Positions 56,008 to 64,000 of a stretch of 64,000 nucleotides of DNA are shown here, one piece after another; position 1 is the stretch's first letter; each line of letters starts with the position of its first letter. The stretch comes from Anaeromyxobacteraceae bacterium (lineage in GTDB: Bacteria; Myxococcota; Myxococcia; Myxococcales; Anaeromyxobacteraceae): the NCBI GenBank assembly GCA_035762305.1, contig DASTPH010000096.1:984-64983 (forward strand), in the 5' to 3' direction. A program made the translations under genes and the position numbers. Below the pieces are notes generated by a model, which was not told the DNA's origin, searched no databases, and saw only the letters and a program-made list of their open reading frames with translations.

Positions 56008-56206
56008 GGCCAGGGCATCATAGCCCGGCGGCGGGGGCGCGCGCGGCACCTGGGGTCCGCCAGGCATGGGCACCGGCTTCCGCCTCGCCCTCCCCCGTCG
56101 CGGGGCGGTGGCCCTGGGTCTGCCCACCGCCTTCTGACCGCCGGGCGTGGCTGCCGCGCCGCCCGTTGACGGCGCGCTCGCGCCGTCGCAGCCTGTCGGC
56201 GCCATC

Positions 56207-57181
56207 ATGAAGGCCCTGGTCACCGGCGCGGCGGGCTTCCTGGGATCCCGGCTGGTGCGGCTGTTGCTCGCGCGAGGGCACGCGGTGCGGGCTCTGCTCA
56301 GGCCTGGCCAGGCGCTCGGGCCGCTCGCTGGGCTGGAGGTGGAGGAGGCCCGCGGCGACGTCACCGAGCCCCACTCGCTGGAGCGCGCGGTGGAGGGCTG
56401 CGACTGGGCCTTCCACCTGGCCGGGGTTCGCCGCGCGGCCAGCCGCCAACTGTTCCTGGAGGTGAACGCCGAGGGGACGCGGCACCTCGTCGAGGCCTGC
56501 CTTTCCGCCGCGCCCGGCCTGGCCCGCTTGGTCCTCGCCGGCTCGCTCGCCGCGGCCGGCCCCTCCGCCACCGGAAAGCGCGAGGAGGACCCGCTCCAGC
56601 CGGCGGAGTGGTACGGCGAGTCCAAGGCGGAGGCGGAGCGCATCGCCCTCTCCTACGCCGGCCGGCTCCCGGTGACCGTGGCCCGGCCGCCCCGCATCGT
56701 CGGCCCCGGCGATCGGGAGAACCTGGTCTTCTTCAAGATCGTCAAGGCCGGCTTCCTCCTCGACCTCCGGGGCCCGCCGCGCCCGCTCTCCTTCGTGGAC
56801 GTGGAGGACTGCGCCCGCGGCTTCCTCCTGCTCGCCGAGAGCCCGGCCGCGCCGGGAGAGGCCTTCTTCCTCGCCTCGGAGGAGCGCACCGACCTCGTCG
56901 GGCTGCAGCGCCAGGTGGCCCGGGCGCTGGGCGTCTCGCCCCGCGCCCTTCCGGTCCCGGCGGCGCTCCTCTCGGCGCTGGCCTGGGTCGCCGACGCCGC
57001 GACCCTGGCCTCGGGCGTGAAGTTGCCCTTGAACCGCAAGCTGGCCCGCCAGATGCTCGCTCCCGGCTGGACATGCGACCCCGGGAAGGCGCGGCGGCTC
57101 CTGGGGTTCGAGGCCCGGGTCTCGCTGGCCGAGTCGGTGGACCGGGCCGCGCGCTGGTACCGCGAGCAGGCGTGGCTGTAG
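56207..57181 (+). CDS. NAD-dependent epimerase/dehydratase-family SDR
   Basis: MKALVTGAAGFLGSRLV Rossmann fold, YGESKAEAE (YxxxK). ATG 56207 preferred over 56147. Confidence 0.85.
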   Translation: MKALVTGAAGFLGSRLVRLLLARGHAVRALLRPGQALGPLAGLEVEEARGDVTEPHSLERAVEGCDWAFHLAGVRRAASRQLFLEVNAEGTRHLVEACLSAAPGLARLVLAGSLAAAGPSATGKREEDPLQPAEWYGESKAEAERIALSYAGRLPVTVARPPRIVGPGDRENLVFFKIVKAGFLLDLRGPPRPLSFVDVEDCARGFLLLAESPAAPGEAFFLASEERTDLVGLQRQVARALGVSPRALPVPAALLSALAWVADAATLASGVKLPLNRKLARQMLAPGWTCDPGKARRLLGFEARVSLAESVDRAARWYREQAWL

Positions 57182-57651
57182 GCCTCGCCCTGGACCGGAG
57201 GGACGTGAGATCACGACCTCGGTCGAGCTTTCGGAGCGCCGCCGCTCTTTAGACTGAGTCCAAACAGTTTAGAAGAACCGGATTCACCCGTTCGGGTCGT
57301 ACCGCCTCAGGCGAGCGATGGCCATCGCGACGTCACCGAGCCGCTGACGGCCGACCTGCGCCGGTTCCACGTCACCGTGTCGCGCGGCGCCGATCCGTGC
57401 TTTGGTCGCCGCGGGGGAGAGCCAGGTGGAGACGCCGGGACGAGCGCCCTGCGCCGGCTCATCGACCTGGCCCCGGTGAGCCTGGGGACGCCCCCCTGTC
57501 TCGGCACCTAGATGCGGGAGACGGTGCGGCGCAACGTGATGTGGTCCGCTGCGCTGGTGACCGGACCTTGCCGCGCAGCGTCACGATTGAGTCACGGCCG
57601 GTCTGGACCCCTTTTGACTTTCGCCGGGCCGCTCGATTAGACCCTGCCGCA

Positions 57652-58335
57652 ATGGCCGGCGGCGAGGCGTGCAAGGGCGCCTTCTTCGACGTGGACGGCA
57701 CGCTGGTGCGCACCAACCTGGTGCACGCCTTCGGCTTCTATGCCATGAACCAGGGATCGATCCTGGGCACCGCCTGGCAGACCCTGCGGACGGTGGCCTC
57801 CATCCCGCTCTTCTGGGCCACCGACAAGGTGAACCGCAAGCTCTTCAACGAGCTCTTCTACCGCTACTACCAGGGGCAGACCGAGGATCGGCTGGTGGTG
57901 CTGGCCGAGGAGCTGTTCCAGGAGGTGCTCCGGCCCGCCATCTACCCGGGCACGCCCCGCCTGCTCGACGAGGCCCGCCGGGCCGGCTGCCGCCTGGTGC
58001 TGTGCACCGGGGCCCTGGACCTCACCATGCGCCCGCTGGCGCGCCACCTGGGCGTGGACGACCTCATCGCCAACCGGATGCACTTCGTGGACGGCGTGGC
58101 CACCGGGCGGGTGGTGCCCCCCATCATCGAGGGGGCCCACAAGGCGCTGGCCATCCGCGACTACTGCCTGCGCCAGGGCCTGGCGCTCGAGCAGAGCCAC
58201 GCCTTCTCCGACTCCTTCTCCGATTACCCCATGCTGGCGGTAGTGGGTCACCCCACCGCCGTGAACCCGGACCTCCGGTTGCGCGGCGTGGCCCGGGCCT
58301 ACGAGTGGCCGGTGGTCTCCACCCTGGAGGGCTGA
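57652..58335 (+). CDS. HAD-IB family hydrolase/phosphatase
   Basis: Motif [10 protein letters not shown]. Also LCTGALD and [11 protein letters not shown]. Confidence 0.8.
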
Positions 58336-58337
58336 GA

Positions 58338-59951
58338 ATGCGGAACCCGCCGCGGCTCTCCCGCCTCTACGAGGCCACCGAGCAGGTGATCACCATCGAG
58401 AAGGACTCGCCGCCCCGCATCCTCTTCTCCGGCGAGGACCTGCTCCTGGAGGACCTCCCGGTTGGGACGCGGGTGGTCTACCCGCGCCCGCCGGTGGAGG
58501 GTCTCCCCAACGTGAAGAGCGCGGTGCGCTGGGCGCTGAACCACCCCGAGGGCTGCGAGCCGCTCCACGCCAAGCTCAGGCCGGGGATGAAGGTCACCAT
58601 CGCCGTGGACGACATCTCCCTGCCGCTCCCGCCCATGCGCACCCCGGACGTGCGCCAGACGGTGCTGGAGATCCTGCTGGAGCTCCTGGCCGACTCCGGC
58701 GTGGACGACGTCCACATCGTCATCGCCATCGCCCTGCACCGGCGCATGACCGAGCCGGAGGTGCGGCGCATGGTGGGGCGCCGCATCTTCGAGGCCTGGT
58801 GGCCGGACCGGCTCTACCACCACGACGCCGAGGACCCCGAGGGGCTGGTCCAGCTGGGGACCACCGAGCACGGCGAGAAGGTGGTCCTGAACCGGCGCGC
58901 CGCCGAGTCGGACCTCATCATCTACGTCAACCTGAACCTGGTCCCCATGGACGGGGGCCACAAGTCCATGGCCACCGGCCTCACCAGCTACCAGGGGGTG
59001 AAGGCCAACCACACCCCGGCCGCCATCCGCAAAAGCTGGTCCTACATGGACCCGCCGCGCTCCGAGCTGCACCGCTCGGTGGACCGCGTGGGGCGGCTCA
59101 TCGACCGCGAGCTGGACGTCTTCCACGTCGAGACCACCATCAACAACCGCATGTTCGACGGCCCCCTCGACTTCCTCGTCAAGCGAGAGGAGGACTTCGT
59201 CGAGGCCGACCGCCTCAAGTTCGAGGGGATGCGGGCGCTGCTCAAGCGCCTCCCCCGCGCCGCCAAGCGCAGGATGTTGCACGCCGTGCCGGCGGCTTAC
59301 GACGTCATCGCCGTCCACGCCGGCCGCACCGAGCCCACCCACAAGCGGATCCTGGAGGCCTCCTACGCCCAGTACCTGGTGGACGTGGACTTCCAGGCCG
59401 ACGTGCTCGTCTACGGCATCCCCTACATCTCGCCCTACAACGTGAACTCCATCCTGAACCCGCTCCTGGTGCAGGTGATGGCCTGCGGCTACTTCTTCAA
59501 CTTCTACCGGGGCAAGCCGCTGGTGAAGAAGGGCGGCACCCTCATCGTGACCCACCACTGCTCCGACGAGTTCGACCCGGACCAGCACCCGAGCTACATC
59601 GAATTCTTCCACCGGCTGCTGCCGGAGACCCGCGACTCGGCGCTGCTGGAGCAGAAGTACGAGCGCGAGTTCGCCGAGAACCCGAGCTACGTTCACATGT
59701 ACCGCACCGGGCACGCCTACCACGGGGCCCACCCCTTCTTCATGTGGTACTGGGGCGAGAACGGCCGCCAGCACCTGGGGCGGGTCATCGCCGTGGGCTC
59801 GGACAACGAGCACGTGCCCAGGCTCCTGGGCTGGGACAGCGCCAAGACGCTCTCCGAAGCCATCGACATGGCGCGCTCGGTCCACGGGCGCGGGGCGGAG
59901 ATCGCCCTCCTGCACCACCCCCCCATCGTCATGACGCAGAACCTCGGGTGA
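58338..59951 (+). CDS. LarA-like (lactate racemase N-terminal domain, DUF2088) protein, long form
   Basis: [24 protein letters not shown]...[15 protein letters not shown] matches the DUF2088 N-terminal pattern. 537 aa. Starts 2 nt after the HAD stop; its own stop overlaps the next start (GTGA). Confidence 0.7.
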
Positions 59952-62900
59952 GCGTGGGACGCGGCGACGACCAGGCCGGCCGCGGCCAGAAGGCCCCGCT
60001 GCGGGCGGTGCCGCCGCCCAGGCCGCCGCTGGACGTCGGGGCGGCCCTGGCCGGGCGCCGGCTGCTCGTCACCGGCGCCACCGGCTTCGTGGGCAAGGTG
60101 GCGCTCTCACTCCTGCTGCACCGGTACCCCCAGGTGGGAAGGGTGTTCGTGCTGCTGCGCCCCGGCACCGGCGGCAGCGCCGAGTCGCGCTTCTGGGACA
60201 AGGTGGCCGGGGCCCGCCCCTTCGACCCGTTGCGGGAGCAGCACGGGGCGCGCTTCGAGGCCTTCCTGCGCGAGAAGTGCCTGCCGCTGGCCGGCGACGT
60301 CTCCGATCCCTTCTTCGGCCTCTCGGAGCGCGACCTCTCGGCGCTGGCCGGCCTGGACCTCCTCGTGAACTGCGCCGGGCTGGTGGACTTCAATCCCTCG
60401 CTGGAGCTGGCCATCCAGGTGAACACCCGCGGCGCCGGCAACGCGGTGGCGCTGTGCCGGCGCCTGGGGGCCTCGCTGCTCCACGTCTCCACCTGCTTCG
60501 TGGCCGGGAACCGGGACGGCGTGGTCTTCGAGGACGAGCCGGTGGCCGGGTACTTCCCCCGCCGCGAGGGGGTGGTGGGCCGTCCCAAGGAGCCGGCGCT
60601 CCACGCCTCGGCTTTCGACCCCGACGAGGAGCTGGCCGACTGCGAGCGGCGCATCGCCGCGGTGCGGGCCGAGGCCGAGGACCGGGTCCTCGGCTCCGGC
60701 TTCCGCGAGCGGGCCGCCGAGCGGCTCCGCCAGGAGGGGCGCGACCTCTCCGACGAGAAGGCGCTGCGCCTGGCGGCCGGGCGCGAGAAGCGGCTGTGGA
60801 TCTCCCAGCGGCTGGTGGACCTGGGGATGGAGCGCGCCCGGCACTGGGGCTGGCCCAACACCTACACCTTCACCAAGTCGCTGGGGGAGCAGCTCATCGC
60901 CCGGAGCGGGGTGCGCCACGCCATCGTGCGCCCGGCCATCGTGGAGAGCGCGCTGCGCTACCCCTTCCCGGGCTGGAACGAGGGGTTCACCACCAGCGCC
61001 CCGCTGGCCTTCCTCTCGCTCAAGGGGCACCGCCTCTATCCGATGCACGAGAAGGCCATCCTGGACGTGGTGCCGGTGGACTTGGTGGCAGCCGGGGTGG
61101 TGGCGGTGTCGGCGGAGCTCCTCGACCGGGCCTGCCGCGGCGAGCCGCTCCCTGGGACCGCGGACGACGCGGACGGGGGCCAGCCCGGCGCGCCTGCCGT
61201 GTTCCACCTGGCCTCCGGGGACCTGAACCCGTTCTGGGTCAGACGCTGCGTCGAGCTGGTGGGGCTCTACCAGCGCCACCTCTACAAGGATCGCCAGGAG
61301 GGGAACCGCTTCTGGAACGCCGTCCTCTCCCGCCTCGAGCCGCAGTCGGTCTCCCGCCTCCACTTCGAGGCCATGAGCTCCCCGGCCCTGAAATCGCTGG
61401 CCCGCGAGGCGAGCCGCCTCTTGCGGGAGCGGACGCCGCGCTGGGGCGCCCCGCGCCTGTCGGCCATGGCGGCGCGGCTCGCCGACGGGCTCGACGAGGT
61501 CGAGTCCCATCTCGCCAAGAGCCAGGCCCTCTTCGAGCTCTACCTCCCCTTCGTGTGGGACAACAAATACGTCTTCCGCTGCGCCAACATCCGCGATCTC
61601 CAGGCCCGCCTCGACGACGCCGACCGCCAGCGCATCCCCTGGGACCCGGAGCGCATCGACTGGCGCCACTACTGGCTCGACGTCCACCTGAAGGGGCTGG
61701 AGCAGTGGGTCTTCCCTGGCCTGGAGGAGGAAGCCAAGAAGAAGGTCCACCCCATCCGCCCGCACCGCGACCTCCTGGAGCTGCTCGAGGCCGCCGCCGA
61801 GAACCACGGGCGCCGCACCGCCCTGCGCATGAGCGGCCAGCGCAAGGCGCGCTTCAGCTACGCCGAGGTGCGGCGGCTGGCCGGGCGGGTGGCCGCCTTC
61901 CTCGCCTCCGCCGGCGTCGGCAAGGGCGACCGGGTCCTGCTCATGGGCGAGAACCGGCCCGAGTGGCCCATCGCCTGGTTCGGGATCGTCCTCTGCGGCG
62001 GGGTCGTGGTGCCGGTGGATCACCAGCTCTCCGCCGCCGAGATGGCGAACCTCACCCGCAGCGCCGGGGCCCGGGTGCTGCTCCTCTCCGAGGCGGTCCG
62101 GGAGCGGCTCGACGACCTCCCGGCCGCGCTGGCCGCCGCCGGCCTCTCGCCGGCCCTGGCCCTCCTCGCCGAGGCGCTGGAGGGGGGACCGGCCCCTGCG
62201 CCGCCTCGGCCGCCGCTCATCCCCGACGACCCGGCCTCGCTCATCTTCACGAGCGGCACCACCGGCACGCCCAAGGGGGTGATGCTCTCCCACCGCAACT
62301 TCGCCAGCCTGGTGTCGCGGCTGGCCGGGGTCTTCGACCTCGGGCCGGGCGACGGGCTGCTCTCGGTGCTGCCGCTCCACCACACTTTCGAGTTCACCTG
62401 CGGGCTCCTGGTGCCGCTCTCCCGCGGCGCCGAGGTGGAGTACCTGGACGAGATCACCGCCGACACCCTGGGCGACGCCCTGGAGGAGGGCCGGGTCACC
62501 GCCATGATCGGCGTGCCCGCCCTGTGGTCGTTGCTCCATCGCCGCATCACCCAGGAGCTCTCGGCCCGGCCCGGGGTGGTGGAGGCGGCCTTCGGCCGGC
62601 TGCGCCAGCTCAACGCCGCCCTGCGCCAGCGTTACGCCCTGAACCTCGGAAAGCTCCTCTTCTGGCCGGTCCACCGCAGGCTGGGCGGGCGGCTGCGCAT
62701 CCTGGTCTCGGGCGGCTCGGCCCTCTCGCCGGAGGTGCAGCAGGCCTTCCACGAGATGGGCTTCGACCTCTACCAGGGCTACGGCCTCACCGAGGCGGCC
62801 CCGGTGCTCTCGGTCTCGGCCCCCGGCGACCGGGGCACGCGACTGGGCAACGTCGGACGGGCCCTGCCCGGCATCGAGATCCGCATCCTCGACCCGGATG

Positions 62901-64000
62901 CGCGCGGGGTGGGGGAGATCCTGGCGCGCGGCCCCAACGTCATGCTGGGCTACTTCTCCGGCGGCGAGGGAGCCCCGGAGGTGGACCGCAACCTCACCGG
63001 GGCGGTGCTCCGGAACGGCTGGCTCCACACCGGCGACCTGGGGACGCTCGACGCCGACGGCCGGCTCACCATCGTCGGCCGCAAGAAGGACGTCATCATC
63101 GACGCCAGCGGCAAGAACGTCTACCCGGACGAGGTGGAGGAGCTCTACCAGGCCCCCGGCCTGGTGAAGGAGCTGTCGGTGGTCGGGCTCCCCGACGAGG
63201 GCGGCGGCGAGAAGGTGGCCATGCTGGTGGTGCCCGACTGGCAGGGGCGCGAGCGCGCCGAGGTGCGGCGCCTGGTGGAGGAGCACCTGAGCCGGGTCTC
63301 GGCCTCGCTGCCGTTCCACAAGCGGGCCAGGCTGTGGCACCTCTCCGACCAGGACCTCCCCAAGACCGCCACCCGCAAGGTCAAGCGCCAGCTGGTGGTG
63401 CAGGAGCTGGGGCGCCTGGAGGCCGCCGCCCACAAGGGCCGGCAGGCGCGCCAGGCGGCCTCCCAGGGCGGCGACGGTTGGGTGCTCGACCTCCTGGCCC
63501 AGGTGGCGGGGCGTCCGCGCGCCGAGGTGACGCTCCAGACCCACCTCGCCACCGAGCTGGCCTTCGACTCGCTCATGGCCGGCGAGCTCATGGCGGCGCT
63601 GGAGCAGGCCGGCGTGCCACCGGCGCTGGCGGAGCAGGTGACCCGTGTCCAGACCGCCGGCGAGCTGGCGCGGCTCGTGTCCCAGGCGGTGCACCGCGAG
63701 GCTCCCCAGGTCCACCCGCCGGCCGCGGCCGCCGAGCGCCCCGGGACGACGCTGGAGCTCCCCGGCGCCGTGGCGGCCCTGGGCCGCTCGCTCCTCGGCT
63801 TCGCCCAGCGCGTGCTCTACCGGGACGTCTACCGCACCCGGGTGGAGGGCGCGGTCCACGTCCCGCGCGACCGGAACTTCCTGGTGGTGGCGAACCACCA
63901 GAGCCACCTGGACATGGGGCTCGTCAAGGTGGCGCTGGGCGATGCCGGGGAGCGGCTCGCCGCCCTGGCCGCCGCCGACTACTTCTTCGACACCGCGTGG
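59948..64000 (+). CDS. Multidomain lipid-biosynthesis enzyme (ElbD-like), 3' end outside window
   Basis: Domain order: fatty acyl reductase (NAD_binding_4), AMP-dependent acyl ligase, ACP, 1-acyl-G3P acyltransferase. The open frame is not in the track because no stop lies within the window. [12 protein letters not shown] and [11 protein letters not shown] (FAR YxxxK); [19 protein letters not shown] (adenylation); [11 protein letters not shown] (ACP Ser); [10 protein letters not shown] (HX4D acyltransferase). Confidence 0.85.

Follow-up and report, generated by a model that had tools for sequence, protein, structure and literature searches.

Gene content of the locus

Five genes lie on the same strand at the end of the window (the whole 64,000-nt stretch of DNA that was analysed): an SDR, an HAD-IB phosphatase, a LarA-like protein, a megaenzyme and, beyond the window, a second SDR (Table 1). 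This order (SDR, HAD, ElbC, ElbD, SDR) is the one published for elbA–E of Myxococcus xanthus (PMC9131029). An earlier note on this DNA had placed the first SDR gene 470 bp upstream of the others, the HAD phosphatase gene 2 nt from the LarA-like gene, and a GTGA coupling between the latter and a megaenzyme gene open to the window end. All of this was borne out: the TGA stop of elbB is followed by 2 nt and the elbC ATG, elbC and elbD overlap at 59948–59951, and elbD continues for 1351 codons to position 64000 with zero stops. The 3' end of elbD, retrieved from the contig, extends 606 nt past the window, yielding a full-length protein of 1552 aa.

Table 1. Features of the elb region, in window positions; window-equivalent positions refer to the contig beyond the window.
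Feature	Position	Strand	Description	Source
elbA	56207–57181	+	extended SDR (NAD-dependent epimerase/dehydratase family), 324 aa from ATG	Pfam
elbA–elbB gap	57182–57651		470 nt, with relic of ~37 codons (about 57270–57384) from a repeated HNH-type gene	blastn
elbB	about 57652–58335	+	HAD-IB phosphatase, 227 aa from probable ATG	Pfam, TIGR01490
elbC	58338–59951	+	LarA homologue, 537 aa, single catalytic histidine; predicted nickel-pincer cofactor user	NF052592, Lar_N
elbD	59948–64000, on to window-equivalent 64606	+	megaenzyme (FAR-type reductase, fatty-acid adenylating domain, ACP, PlsC/AGPAT-type acyltransferase)	Pfam
elbE	window-equivalent 64603–65610	+	SDR, 335 aa, GTGA overlap with elbD	contig beyond window

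The elbA ORF opens at 56147, upstream of its probable ATG, and its product matched the Pfam families Epimerase (E 1e-29) and 3Beta_HSD (E 2e-19); the top NCBIfam match, an HpnA-like model, remained under its cut-off. A counterpart with 58–66% identity occupies the same position in Anaeromyxobacteraceae loci. While elbA and elbB are separated by 470 nt here, the corresponding gap in relatives measures ~80–210 nt. When the gap was compared with the organism's own genome by blastn, matches were found on contigs C62 (79% over 117 nt) and C3 (94% over 65 nt), and the gap contains DVTEPLTADLRRFHVTVSR, which is also present in the C62 ORF. An Rfam search of the gap gave one sub-threshold chance match only, and consensus scans for promoters and terminators found neither in it; a regulatory RNA or promoter was rejected as its content, and what the gap holds is the relic of the HNH-type gene. 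The single terminator-like site returned by the consensus scan lies within elbC, which is fewer than expected by chance.

ElbB was assigned to the HAD family by Pfam (E 1e-34), TIGR01490 (125 bits, cut-off 98.3) and TIGR01488 (75 bits, cut-off 45), and its sequence contains the DxDGT motif as FFDVDGTLV together with SDSFSD. In ElbD, Pfam identified NAD_binding_4 (residues 41–382), AMP-binding (613–1003), AMP-binding_C, PP-binding (1178–1244) and Acyltransferase (from 1297) domains, as well as a Sterile domain (522–588) that, at 28.4 bits, was under its cut-off of 35.4. With its HX4D and FPEGTRS motifs, the latter read in the full-length protein, the acyltransferase belongs to the PlsC/AGPAT type that acts in glycerolipid synthesis. 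The make-up read from the window by the earlier note (reductase, adenylase, carrier, acyltransferase) agrees with this, and all five motifs that it quoted, including NHQSHLD, were found; the domain order that it gave for M. xanthus ElbD was loose. The start of elbD is uncertain, as alignments of relatives mostly begin at residue 10–37. ElbD is 63–66% identical to its orthologues in Anaeromyxobacter; for Corallococcus the value is about 53%.

Identity and distribution of the operon

Most of 80 related loci, which come from Myxococcota, Acidobacteriota and one Gemmatimonadaceae genome, show the order HAD, LarA-like protein, megaenzyme and SDR. On the strand of ElbC, ElbD follows downstream in 61 of 74 eligible loci, and ElbB is found upstream in 60 of 67 eligible loci. 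Orthology to the Myxococcaceae was judged on Corallococcus, a member of the same family as Myxococcus serving as proxy for M. xanthus: three Corallococcus loci (L027, L028, L034) encode, in the same order, ElbC (64–65% identical), ElbD (52–53%; 53% across residues 28–1485) and ElbE (51–54%), preceded by ElbB (66–68%) at L027 and L034, its place being outside the fetched part of L028. The earlier note had suspected a probable elb-like ether-lipid cluster, and both the synteny and the similarity support it. Since the gene order and the ElbD architecture fit the published description, since the genes are translationally coupled (elbB and elbC by their 2-nt spacer, the pairs elbC/elbD and elbD/elbE by GTGA overlaps) and since synteny is kept across three phyla, the region is very probably an elbABCDE ether-lipid operon orthologous to that of M. 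xanthus, with ether-lipid production predicted for this host from sequence. The cluster itself is of an already described kind, simply another orthologue of an operon that has been characterised.

Among 151 Myxococcota genomes, 88 encode intact ElbC and ElbD and 60 encode neither; two carry ElbD beside a broken or fragmented ElbC and one carries ElbC alone. Three Anaeromyxobacteraceae genomes were without both ElbC and ElbD. This near one-to-one co-occurrence in Myxococcota argues that ElbC belongs to the ElbD pathway.

ElbC is a LarA-family protein with one catalytic histidine

ElbC matched Lar_N (PF09861, E 2e-36) and scored 832 bits against the NCBIfam model NF052592 (LarAH14/15/16; cut-off 740), covering profile positions 2–518 of 520. 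In the alignment, H134 corresponds to the catalytic histidine, K209 to the cofactor-tether lysine (K195 of LarA_Sp) and H225 to the nickel-ligand histidine (H211 of LarA_Sp). In two alignments of 13 sequences each, which covered ElbC orthologues of Myxococcota, Acidobacteriota and Gemmatimonadaceae, the tether lysine, the nickel-ligand histidine and the one catalytic histidine were invariant. A second catalytic histidine was not found in the ElbC alignment, where the respective loop, YVN(L/I)N(L/F)VPM, lacks histidine and is shorter by 4 residues. Because racemisation needs two catalytic histidines and one is present, ElbC should not be filed as a racemase. Within the loop alignment, either N198 or N200 may correspond to the LarA_Sp asparagine, and ElbC is without the arginine of the canonical D-x-T-R motif. 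The AF2 model of ElbC (pTM 0.82) retrieved, at E below 1e-13, LarA-family structures exclusively in Foldseek (TM up to 0.80), the top matches being 9q3k and 9q3j (TM 0.78–0.80) at a sequence identity of ~20%.

The genes for the nickel-pincer cofactor are present in the organism's own genome above cut-off: larB (268 bits) and larC (187 bits) are adjacent on contig C92, and larE (301 bits) is on C116. All 89 ElbC-bearing Myxococcota genomes encode larC, compared with 35 of the 62 without ElbC, and in 71 of the 89 ElbC was the sole LarA-type match. Outside the Myxococcota, larC was found in 21 of 26 ElbC-bearing MAGs, with no larC match in the other 5, which may be incomplete. The organism's own genome encodes two further LarA homologues, one canonical with two histidines and one with a single histidine, which rules out that larB, larC and larE serve ElbC alone here; for this reason, the argument from ElbC and larC rests on the 71 other genomes. 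Retention of larC could instead serve other nickel-pincer enzymes, and a structurally unrelated family of such enzymes has been reported (PMC13524815). The NCBIfam score above the equivalog cut-off, the invariant Lys/His/His set, a fold closest to cofactor-loaded single-histidine LarA homologues (PMC12611868), and the presence of larB, larC and larE together with larC co-occurrence all point to ElbC as a predicted nickel-pincer-cofactor enzyme, and a role of this cofactor in ether-lipid synthesis is proposed.

The earlier note was right in regarding the LarA-like and HAD genes as the under-described part of the cluster. A 2022 review labels elbC as being of "unknown function" (PMC9131029), a 2026 paper that gives functions for the elb operon gives none for ElbC, and no mutant isolating elbC was reported in the ether-lipid reviews.

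Predicted ether-lipid products

M. xanthus elbD is required, by genetics, for alkyl and vinyl ether lipids (PMC9131029). The ElbD adenylating domain of M. xanthus was shown in vitro to activate a fatty acid and to load the carrier domain of the same protein, and i15:0 aldehyde is found in the wild type and not in elbD mutants. The elb cluster has also been reported in SD4 Acidobacteria, for which production of alkyl ether lipids has been shown. CarF (PF10520) was absent from all 14 Anaeromyxobacteraceae genomes searched, among them the organism's own (94% complete); the same search, run across the order as a positive control, found the family in 26 of 61 genomes. Because larB, larC and larE are present but CarF is not, the predicted products are 1-O-alkyl (plasmanyl) lipids rather than vinyl ethers (plasmalogens) formed via the aerobic route.

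Possible roles of ElbC

In the working proposed here, the adenylating domain of ElbD would activate a fatty acid and load it onto its own carrier domain, where the N-terminal FAR-type domain would turn the tethered acyl group into an aldehyde or alcohol. ElbC would take a hydride from, and return it to, the glycerol-phosphate or dihydroxyacetone-phosphate part, by which C1 would be made reactive and the alkyl chain joined as an ether. The SDR ElbE, perhaps also ElbA, would carry out keto reduction, the PlsC-type domain of ElbD would acylate the backbone, and ElbB would strip or supply phosphate on an intermediate. For the ether-forming step, which has no assigned enzyme in M. xanthus (PMC9131029), we tentatively suggest ElbC: as a nickel-pincer enzyme it might take the C2 hydride off a glycerol-phosphate ester (or a hemiacetal with the fatty aldehyde of ElbD), the C1 substituent would be exchanged or lost at the keto stage, and the hydride would go back to the same face. 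Since the hydride is returned to the same face, one catalytic histidine would suffice.

A nickel-pincer ElbC might instead prepare the backbone only, by a triose- or glycerol-phosphate-type interconversion or a one-way inversion of the glycerol-phosphate stereocentre, with ElbB trimming phosphate and ElbD doing the lipid chemistry. This role is conceivable, if doubtful: other single-histidine LarA groups adjoin triose-phosphate isomerase, GAPDH and other glycolytic genes (PMC12611868, PMC7583248), one-directional racemase or epimerase activity has been proposed for single-histidine LarA groups (PMC12611868), and elbC is tightly coupled, by the 2-nt spacer, to the HAD-IB phosphatase gene. However, glycerol-3-phosphate and DHAP occur in any cell, and a dedicated supplier that matches ElbD about one-to-one is not obviously needed. 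We consider it unlikely that ElbC is a LarA-derived pseudoenzyme, that is, a cofactor-free partner that supports ElbD structurally or presents its substrate while ElbD and the SDRs make the ether bond by themselves. The missing second histidine and the replacement of the canonical cofactor-phosphate arginine would fit such a partner, as would the neighbouring LarAH Group 16, which is without even the tether lysine, and the related Frankia LarAH14, which was inactive in vitro on seven hydroxy acids (PMC7583248). Yet the tether lysine, nickel-ligand histidine and first catalytic histidine do not vary among orthologues of three phyla, every ElbC-bearing Myxococcota genome retains larC even where, as in the 71, no other LarA-type protein was matched, and the nearest solved relatives bear the cofactor on the equivalent lysine (PMC12611868).

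That the cluster produces another neutral lipid here (fatty alcohols, wax esters or acylated alcohol-phosphates) and not glycerol ethers is improbable. A FAR domain and an acyltransferase could in principle yield wax-ester-like products, and neither activity could be demonstrated in vitro for M. xanthus ElbD (PMC9131029); but the genetic link of elbD to both classes of ether lipid, the glycerolipid type of the acyltransferase with its two motifs, and the occurrence of elb in the SD4 group, proven makers of alkyl ether lipids, all speak against it.

Should the tentative assignment of ElbC to the ether-forming step be right, a one-histidine relative of the nickel-cofactor lactate racemase may perform a part of the predominant ElbD route that has been open since 2014. 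ElbC would then be the counterpart of alkyl-DHAP synthase, but without a flavin and without net redox change, and would carry out the first non-racemase reaction in the LarA family. Nickel and the genes larB, larC and larE would be needed for aerobic bacterial ether-lipid synthesis in Myxococcota, SD4 Acidobacteriota and other groups, and a nickel-dependent marker would be available from which bacterial ether lipids, among them precursors of environmental biomarker lipids, could be predicted. The link drawn here between LarAH Group 15 and the elb ether-lipid operon bridges two literatures: the ether-lipid papers give ElbC no function, and the LarA papers list Group 15 beside an acyl-CoA synthetase, a phosphatase and an epimerase. 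Our literature search found no paper joining lactate racemase or DUF2088 with ether lipids.

Comparison with known systems

The M. xanthus operon elbABCDE is given as MXAN_1531 to MXAN_1527 (PMC13012113; MIBiG BGC0000871; Lorenzen et al. 2014). There, elbA and elbE code for NAD-dependent epimerases/dehydratases, elbB for an HAD-like phosphohydrolase, and elbD for the protein UniProt Q1DC43, with an N-terminal FAR1-like domain, an acyl-CoA synthetase, an ACP and an AGPAT-like acyltransferase (PMC9131029). The present locus resembles it in its five genes in order, the ElbD architecture, the HAD protein as ElbB and the SDRs at both ends, with Corallococcus orthologues that are 51–68% identical across ElbB–E. 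It differs in that elbA is split from elbB by the gap with the gene relic, and in its host, which belongs to a facultatively anaerobic genus group with reduced genomes (Anaeromyxobacteraceae), lacks CarF and, in a tblastn search of its genome with the N-terminal 623 residues of ElbD (the FAR region), showed no second FAR-type domain, and so no protein resembling MXAN_1675.

ElbC belongs to the same family as LarAH Group 15 (Desguin et al. 2020, PMC7583248 supplement), whose members include the Anaeromyxobacter proteins Adeh_1166, AnaeK_1225 and A2cp1_1327 and one Sorangium protein. The Anaeromyxobacter sequences of this group start with MREPRSLSRFYEATEQ, like the ElbC of the window, and the Group 15 neighbours COG0451, COG0560 and COG1022 correspond to ElbA/E, ElbB and ElbD, respectively (PMC7583248). 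In that study, the residue table for Group 15 reads D, L, H, gap, gap, ..., K, H, the group is filed under 'Unknown function', and lipids have 0 mentions in the main text. With LarA_Sp and LarA_Bw (PDB 9q2u, 9q3k, 9q3j; Gatreddi et al. 2025, PMC12611868), ElbC shares the two-domain LarA fold, the HDxED motif, a length near 500 aa, and the tether lysine, nickel-ligand histidine and first catalytic histidine, the second being absent. Unlike these proteins, ElbC has the shortened loop and an invariant insertion of its own, and its context is one of lipid genes, whereas theirs is glycolytic.

The peroxisomal route (FAR1, GNPAT, AGPS and alkyl-DHAP reductase; M. xanthus counterpart MXAN_1676–1674) has in common with elb a fatty-acyl reductase, a glycerolipid acyltransferase and an NAD(P)-dependent reductase, and both would yield a 1-O-alkyl glycerophospholipid precursor. 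Unlike that route, the elb operon contains no flavin-dependent AGPS, and a LarA-type protein fills its sole slot lacking an assigned function; moreover, an ACP is fused to the elb activities, which probably makes the acyl group carrier-bound and not CoA-bound.

Gene content and junctions of the locus

The locus lies in a draft genome of 4.79 Mb (94% complete), on contig C96, and has a G+C content of about 70-77%. Its features are listed in the table below. The earlier note had described the large gene, elbD, as open to the window end; the frame is indeed stop-free up to 64000, and with the rest of the contig, which the note had wanted retrieved, the gene was found to be complete. The contig ends 360 nt 3' of elbE. 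The 2 nt between the HAD-IB stop and the elbC ATG were confirmed on the sequence, the proposed GTGA overlap of elbC with the large gene is present, and all five motifs quoted from the latter occur in its translation. Searches of ElbD with Pfam and NCBIfam returned NAD_binding_4, a weak Sterile match, AMP-binding, PP-binding and Acyltransferase, and translation of the full contig revealed the acyltransferase motif FPEGTRS. The first ~30 residues of ElbD (window 59948-60035) are of low complexity and poorly conserved. Because most relatives start aligning only at residue 10-37, the GTGA coupling with elbC is uncertain and the real start may be a downstream GTG.

Features of the elb locus (window numbering; positions beyond 64000 extend it along the contig)
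Feature	Position	Strand	Length	Assignment or remark
elbA	56207-57181	+		extended SDR, epimerase/dehydratase type (Pfam/NCBIfam)
elbA/elbB gap	57182-57651		470 nt	intergenic
gene relic	~57270-57384		~37 codons	within the gap
elbB	~57652-58335	+		HAD-IB, TIGR01490 score above cut-off
elbC	58338-59951	+		LarA-like, Lar_N (Pfam)
elbD	59948-64606	+	1552 aa	stop beyond the window
elbE	beyond the window		335 aa	second SDR, extended, epimerase/dehydratase type; GTGA overlap with elbD 3' end

At 470 nt, the elbA/elbB gap is longer than in relatives (~80-210 nt) and contains a relic (...DVTEPLTADLRRFHVTVSR...) of a gene that has copies in other parts of the genome, with matches on contigs C62 (16752-16868, 79%) and C3 (928-991, 94%). 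An HNH-nuclease-like motif was found in the downstream part of the relic's source gene. An Rfam search of the gap gave no match.

ElbC is related to single-histidine LarA homologues

ElbC scored 832 bits (cut-off 740) against the NCBIfam equivalog NF052592 ("NPN-dependent hydroxyacid isomerase, LarAH14/15/16 family"). Its Anaeromyxobacter orthologues Adeh_1166, AnaeK_1225 and A2cp1_1327 were assigned to LarAH Group 15, "Unknown function", with COG0451, COG0560 and COG1022 as neighbours (Desguin et al. 2020 supplement, PMC7583248); these neighbours are the elb genes. Lipids go unmentioned in the main text of that paper (PMC7583248). Since a literature search for lactate racemase or DUF2088 combined with ether lipid or ether found no paper, the LarA and ether-lipid literatures appear to have been unjoined hitherto.

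The closest solved structures by sequence (E 2e-33) were two single-histidine LarA homologues, in which Lys195 serves as the anchor of the nickel-pincer cofactor and His211 as the nickel ligand (Gatreddi et al. 2025, PMC12611868). In two alignments, ElbC H134, K209 and H225 occupied the positions of the first catalytic histidine, the cofactor-tether lysine and the nickel ligand, respectively, and the key residues were invariant among 13 family members and 13 orthologues from three phyla. The loop for the second catalytic histidine was four residues shorter in all ElbC orthologues aligned, reading YVN(L/I)N(L/F)VPM; the canonical LarA homologue of this genome has EPH there. An AlphaFold model of ElbC (pLDDT 76, pTM 0.82) best matched 9q3k and 9q3j (TM 0.78-0.80), with canonical LarA structures ranking next. 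The sister group, LarAH Group 16 (Frankia, Microlunatus), keeps acyltransferase and HAD neighbours and has lost the tether lysine, carrying Gly or Ala instead (PMC7583248 supplement), suggesting that some ElbC relatives may function without the nickel cofactor.

ElbC co-occurs with larC and with ElbD

Profile searches of the genome detected adjacent larC and larB genes and larE elsewhere, all above cut-off. As two further LarA homologues are present, these genes do not single out ElbC, and the comparison was therefore made over 151 Myxococcota genomes. One of the genome's LarA homologues (contig C203, 25607-26953; 489 aa, 34% identity to ElbC) is also of the single-histidine kind and similar to the LarA_Sp/LarA_Bw type, with YVNAST where the histidine loop would be; ~9 kb away on this contig are two ElbA-like SDR genes (C203:14621-16663). 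ElbC scored above cut-off in 89 of the 151 genomes. All 89 contained larC (one match being cut by a contig end), as did 35 of the 62 genomes lacking ElbC, and in 71 of the 89 ElbC was the sole match to the LarA-type profile, which does detect canonical LarA homologues (E ~1e-15). Outside Myxococcota, larC was present in 21 of 26 ElbC-bearing MAGs. The retention of larC in every ElbC-bearing Myxococcota genome argues that ElbC is a predicted user of the nickel-pincer cofactor; a caveat is the second, structurally unrelated family using this cofactor reported in PMC13524815.

When the genomes were searched for the FAR region of ElbD, raw counts that ignore shared ancestry gave 88 of the 151 genomes with both ElbC and ElbD intact, two in which ElbD adjoins a frameshifted or contig-split ElbC, one with ElbC only and 60 with neither, one of these having a stand-alone FAR. 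Three Anaeromyxobacteraceae genomes lack both. This joint presence and joint absence, recurring across families in kinship-uncorrected counts, argues that ElbC functions together with ElbD. In one genome (G064, C4:462634-464202) the ElbC frame is broken into three, with one stop, and immediately precedes an undamaged ElbD (464246). This reflects decay of elbC or else an error in the sequence; a real break would provide a natural test of the need for ElbC.

Proposed pathway

In M. xanthus, elbD is required for alkyl and vinyl ether lipids, the adenylation and carrier functions of ElbD are active in vitro, and the i15:0 aldehyde was identified in the wild type and not in elbD mutants; neither the ether-forming step nor ElbD's FAR and acyltransferase activities were established (PMC9131029). 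In the pathway proposed here, ElbD would activate a fatty acid, tether it and then reduce it. ElbC, equipped with a single acid/base histidine, could take off a hydride at a 2-hydroxy position within the glycerol-phosphate part and put it back, so that C1 would be activated toward ether formation. Completion of the 1-alkyl-2-acyl backbone would fall to the SDRs and the PlsC-type domain, and ElbB would act on a phosphate. Because searches of the genome found neither CarF nor a second FAR-type protein, alkyl ethers are the expected products, with the elb operon as their sole source. The main value of the analysis is a proposed connection of ElbC with the nickel-pincer cofactor that can be put to experimental test.

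Distribution and comparison with the M. xanthus elb operon

The closest named relatives of ElbC are those of Anaeromyxobacter paludicola (82%) and A. oryzae (78%), which places the host in the Anaeromyxobacteraceae. A scan of one genome per species with the ElbC family alignment yielded 594 loci encoding a relative, and the best 80 of the 594 were kept and searched with the five Elb proteins. Among these 80, ElbD lay downstream of ElbC on the same strand at 61 of 74 loci with sufficient flank, and ElbB upstream at 60 of 67. Their hosts include Anaeromyxobacter, Corallococcus, Archangium, Polyangia and Kofleriaceae, many Pyrinomonadaceae and Blastocatellia (Acidobacteriota) and one Gemmatimonadaceae. 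As PMC9131029 also states, ElbD lies elsewhere in the genome in some Myxococcaceae, whose ElbA-B-C genes stay together. Several Myxococcaceae, and a small number of further genomes, have ElbC, often with ElbA and ElbB, apart from ElbD (loci L021, L030, L036, L064, L068 and L084; genomes G074, G087 and G126). The distance is ~100 kb in G074 and G087; in G126 the ElbD match is interrupted by four in-frame stops, making it a possible pseudogene.

In M. xanthus (MXAN_1531 to MXAN_1527; PMC13012113, 2026), elbA and elbE encode NAD-dependent epimerases/dehydratases, elbB a HAD-like phosphohydrolase, elbC a protein listed as of unknown function, and elbD an N-terminal FAR1-like domain followed by acyl-CoA synthetase, ACP and an AGPAT-like acyltransferase (PMC9131029, a 2022 review of myxobacterial plasmalogens). 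The proposal of an elb-like ether-lipid cluster is supported, since the gene order matches that of M. xanthus and the order ElbB-ElbC-ElbD recurs across loci. The two loci have all five genes in common, in identical order, and the cluster is already known in kind, as the elbABCDE operon.
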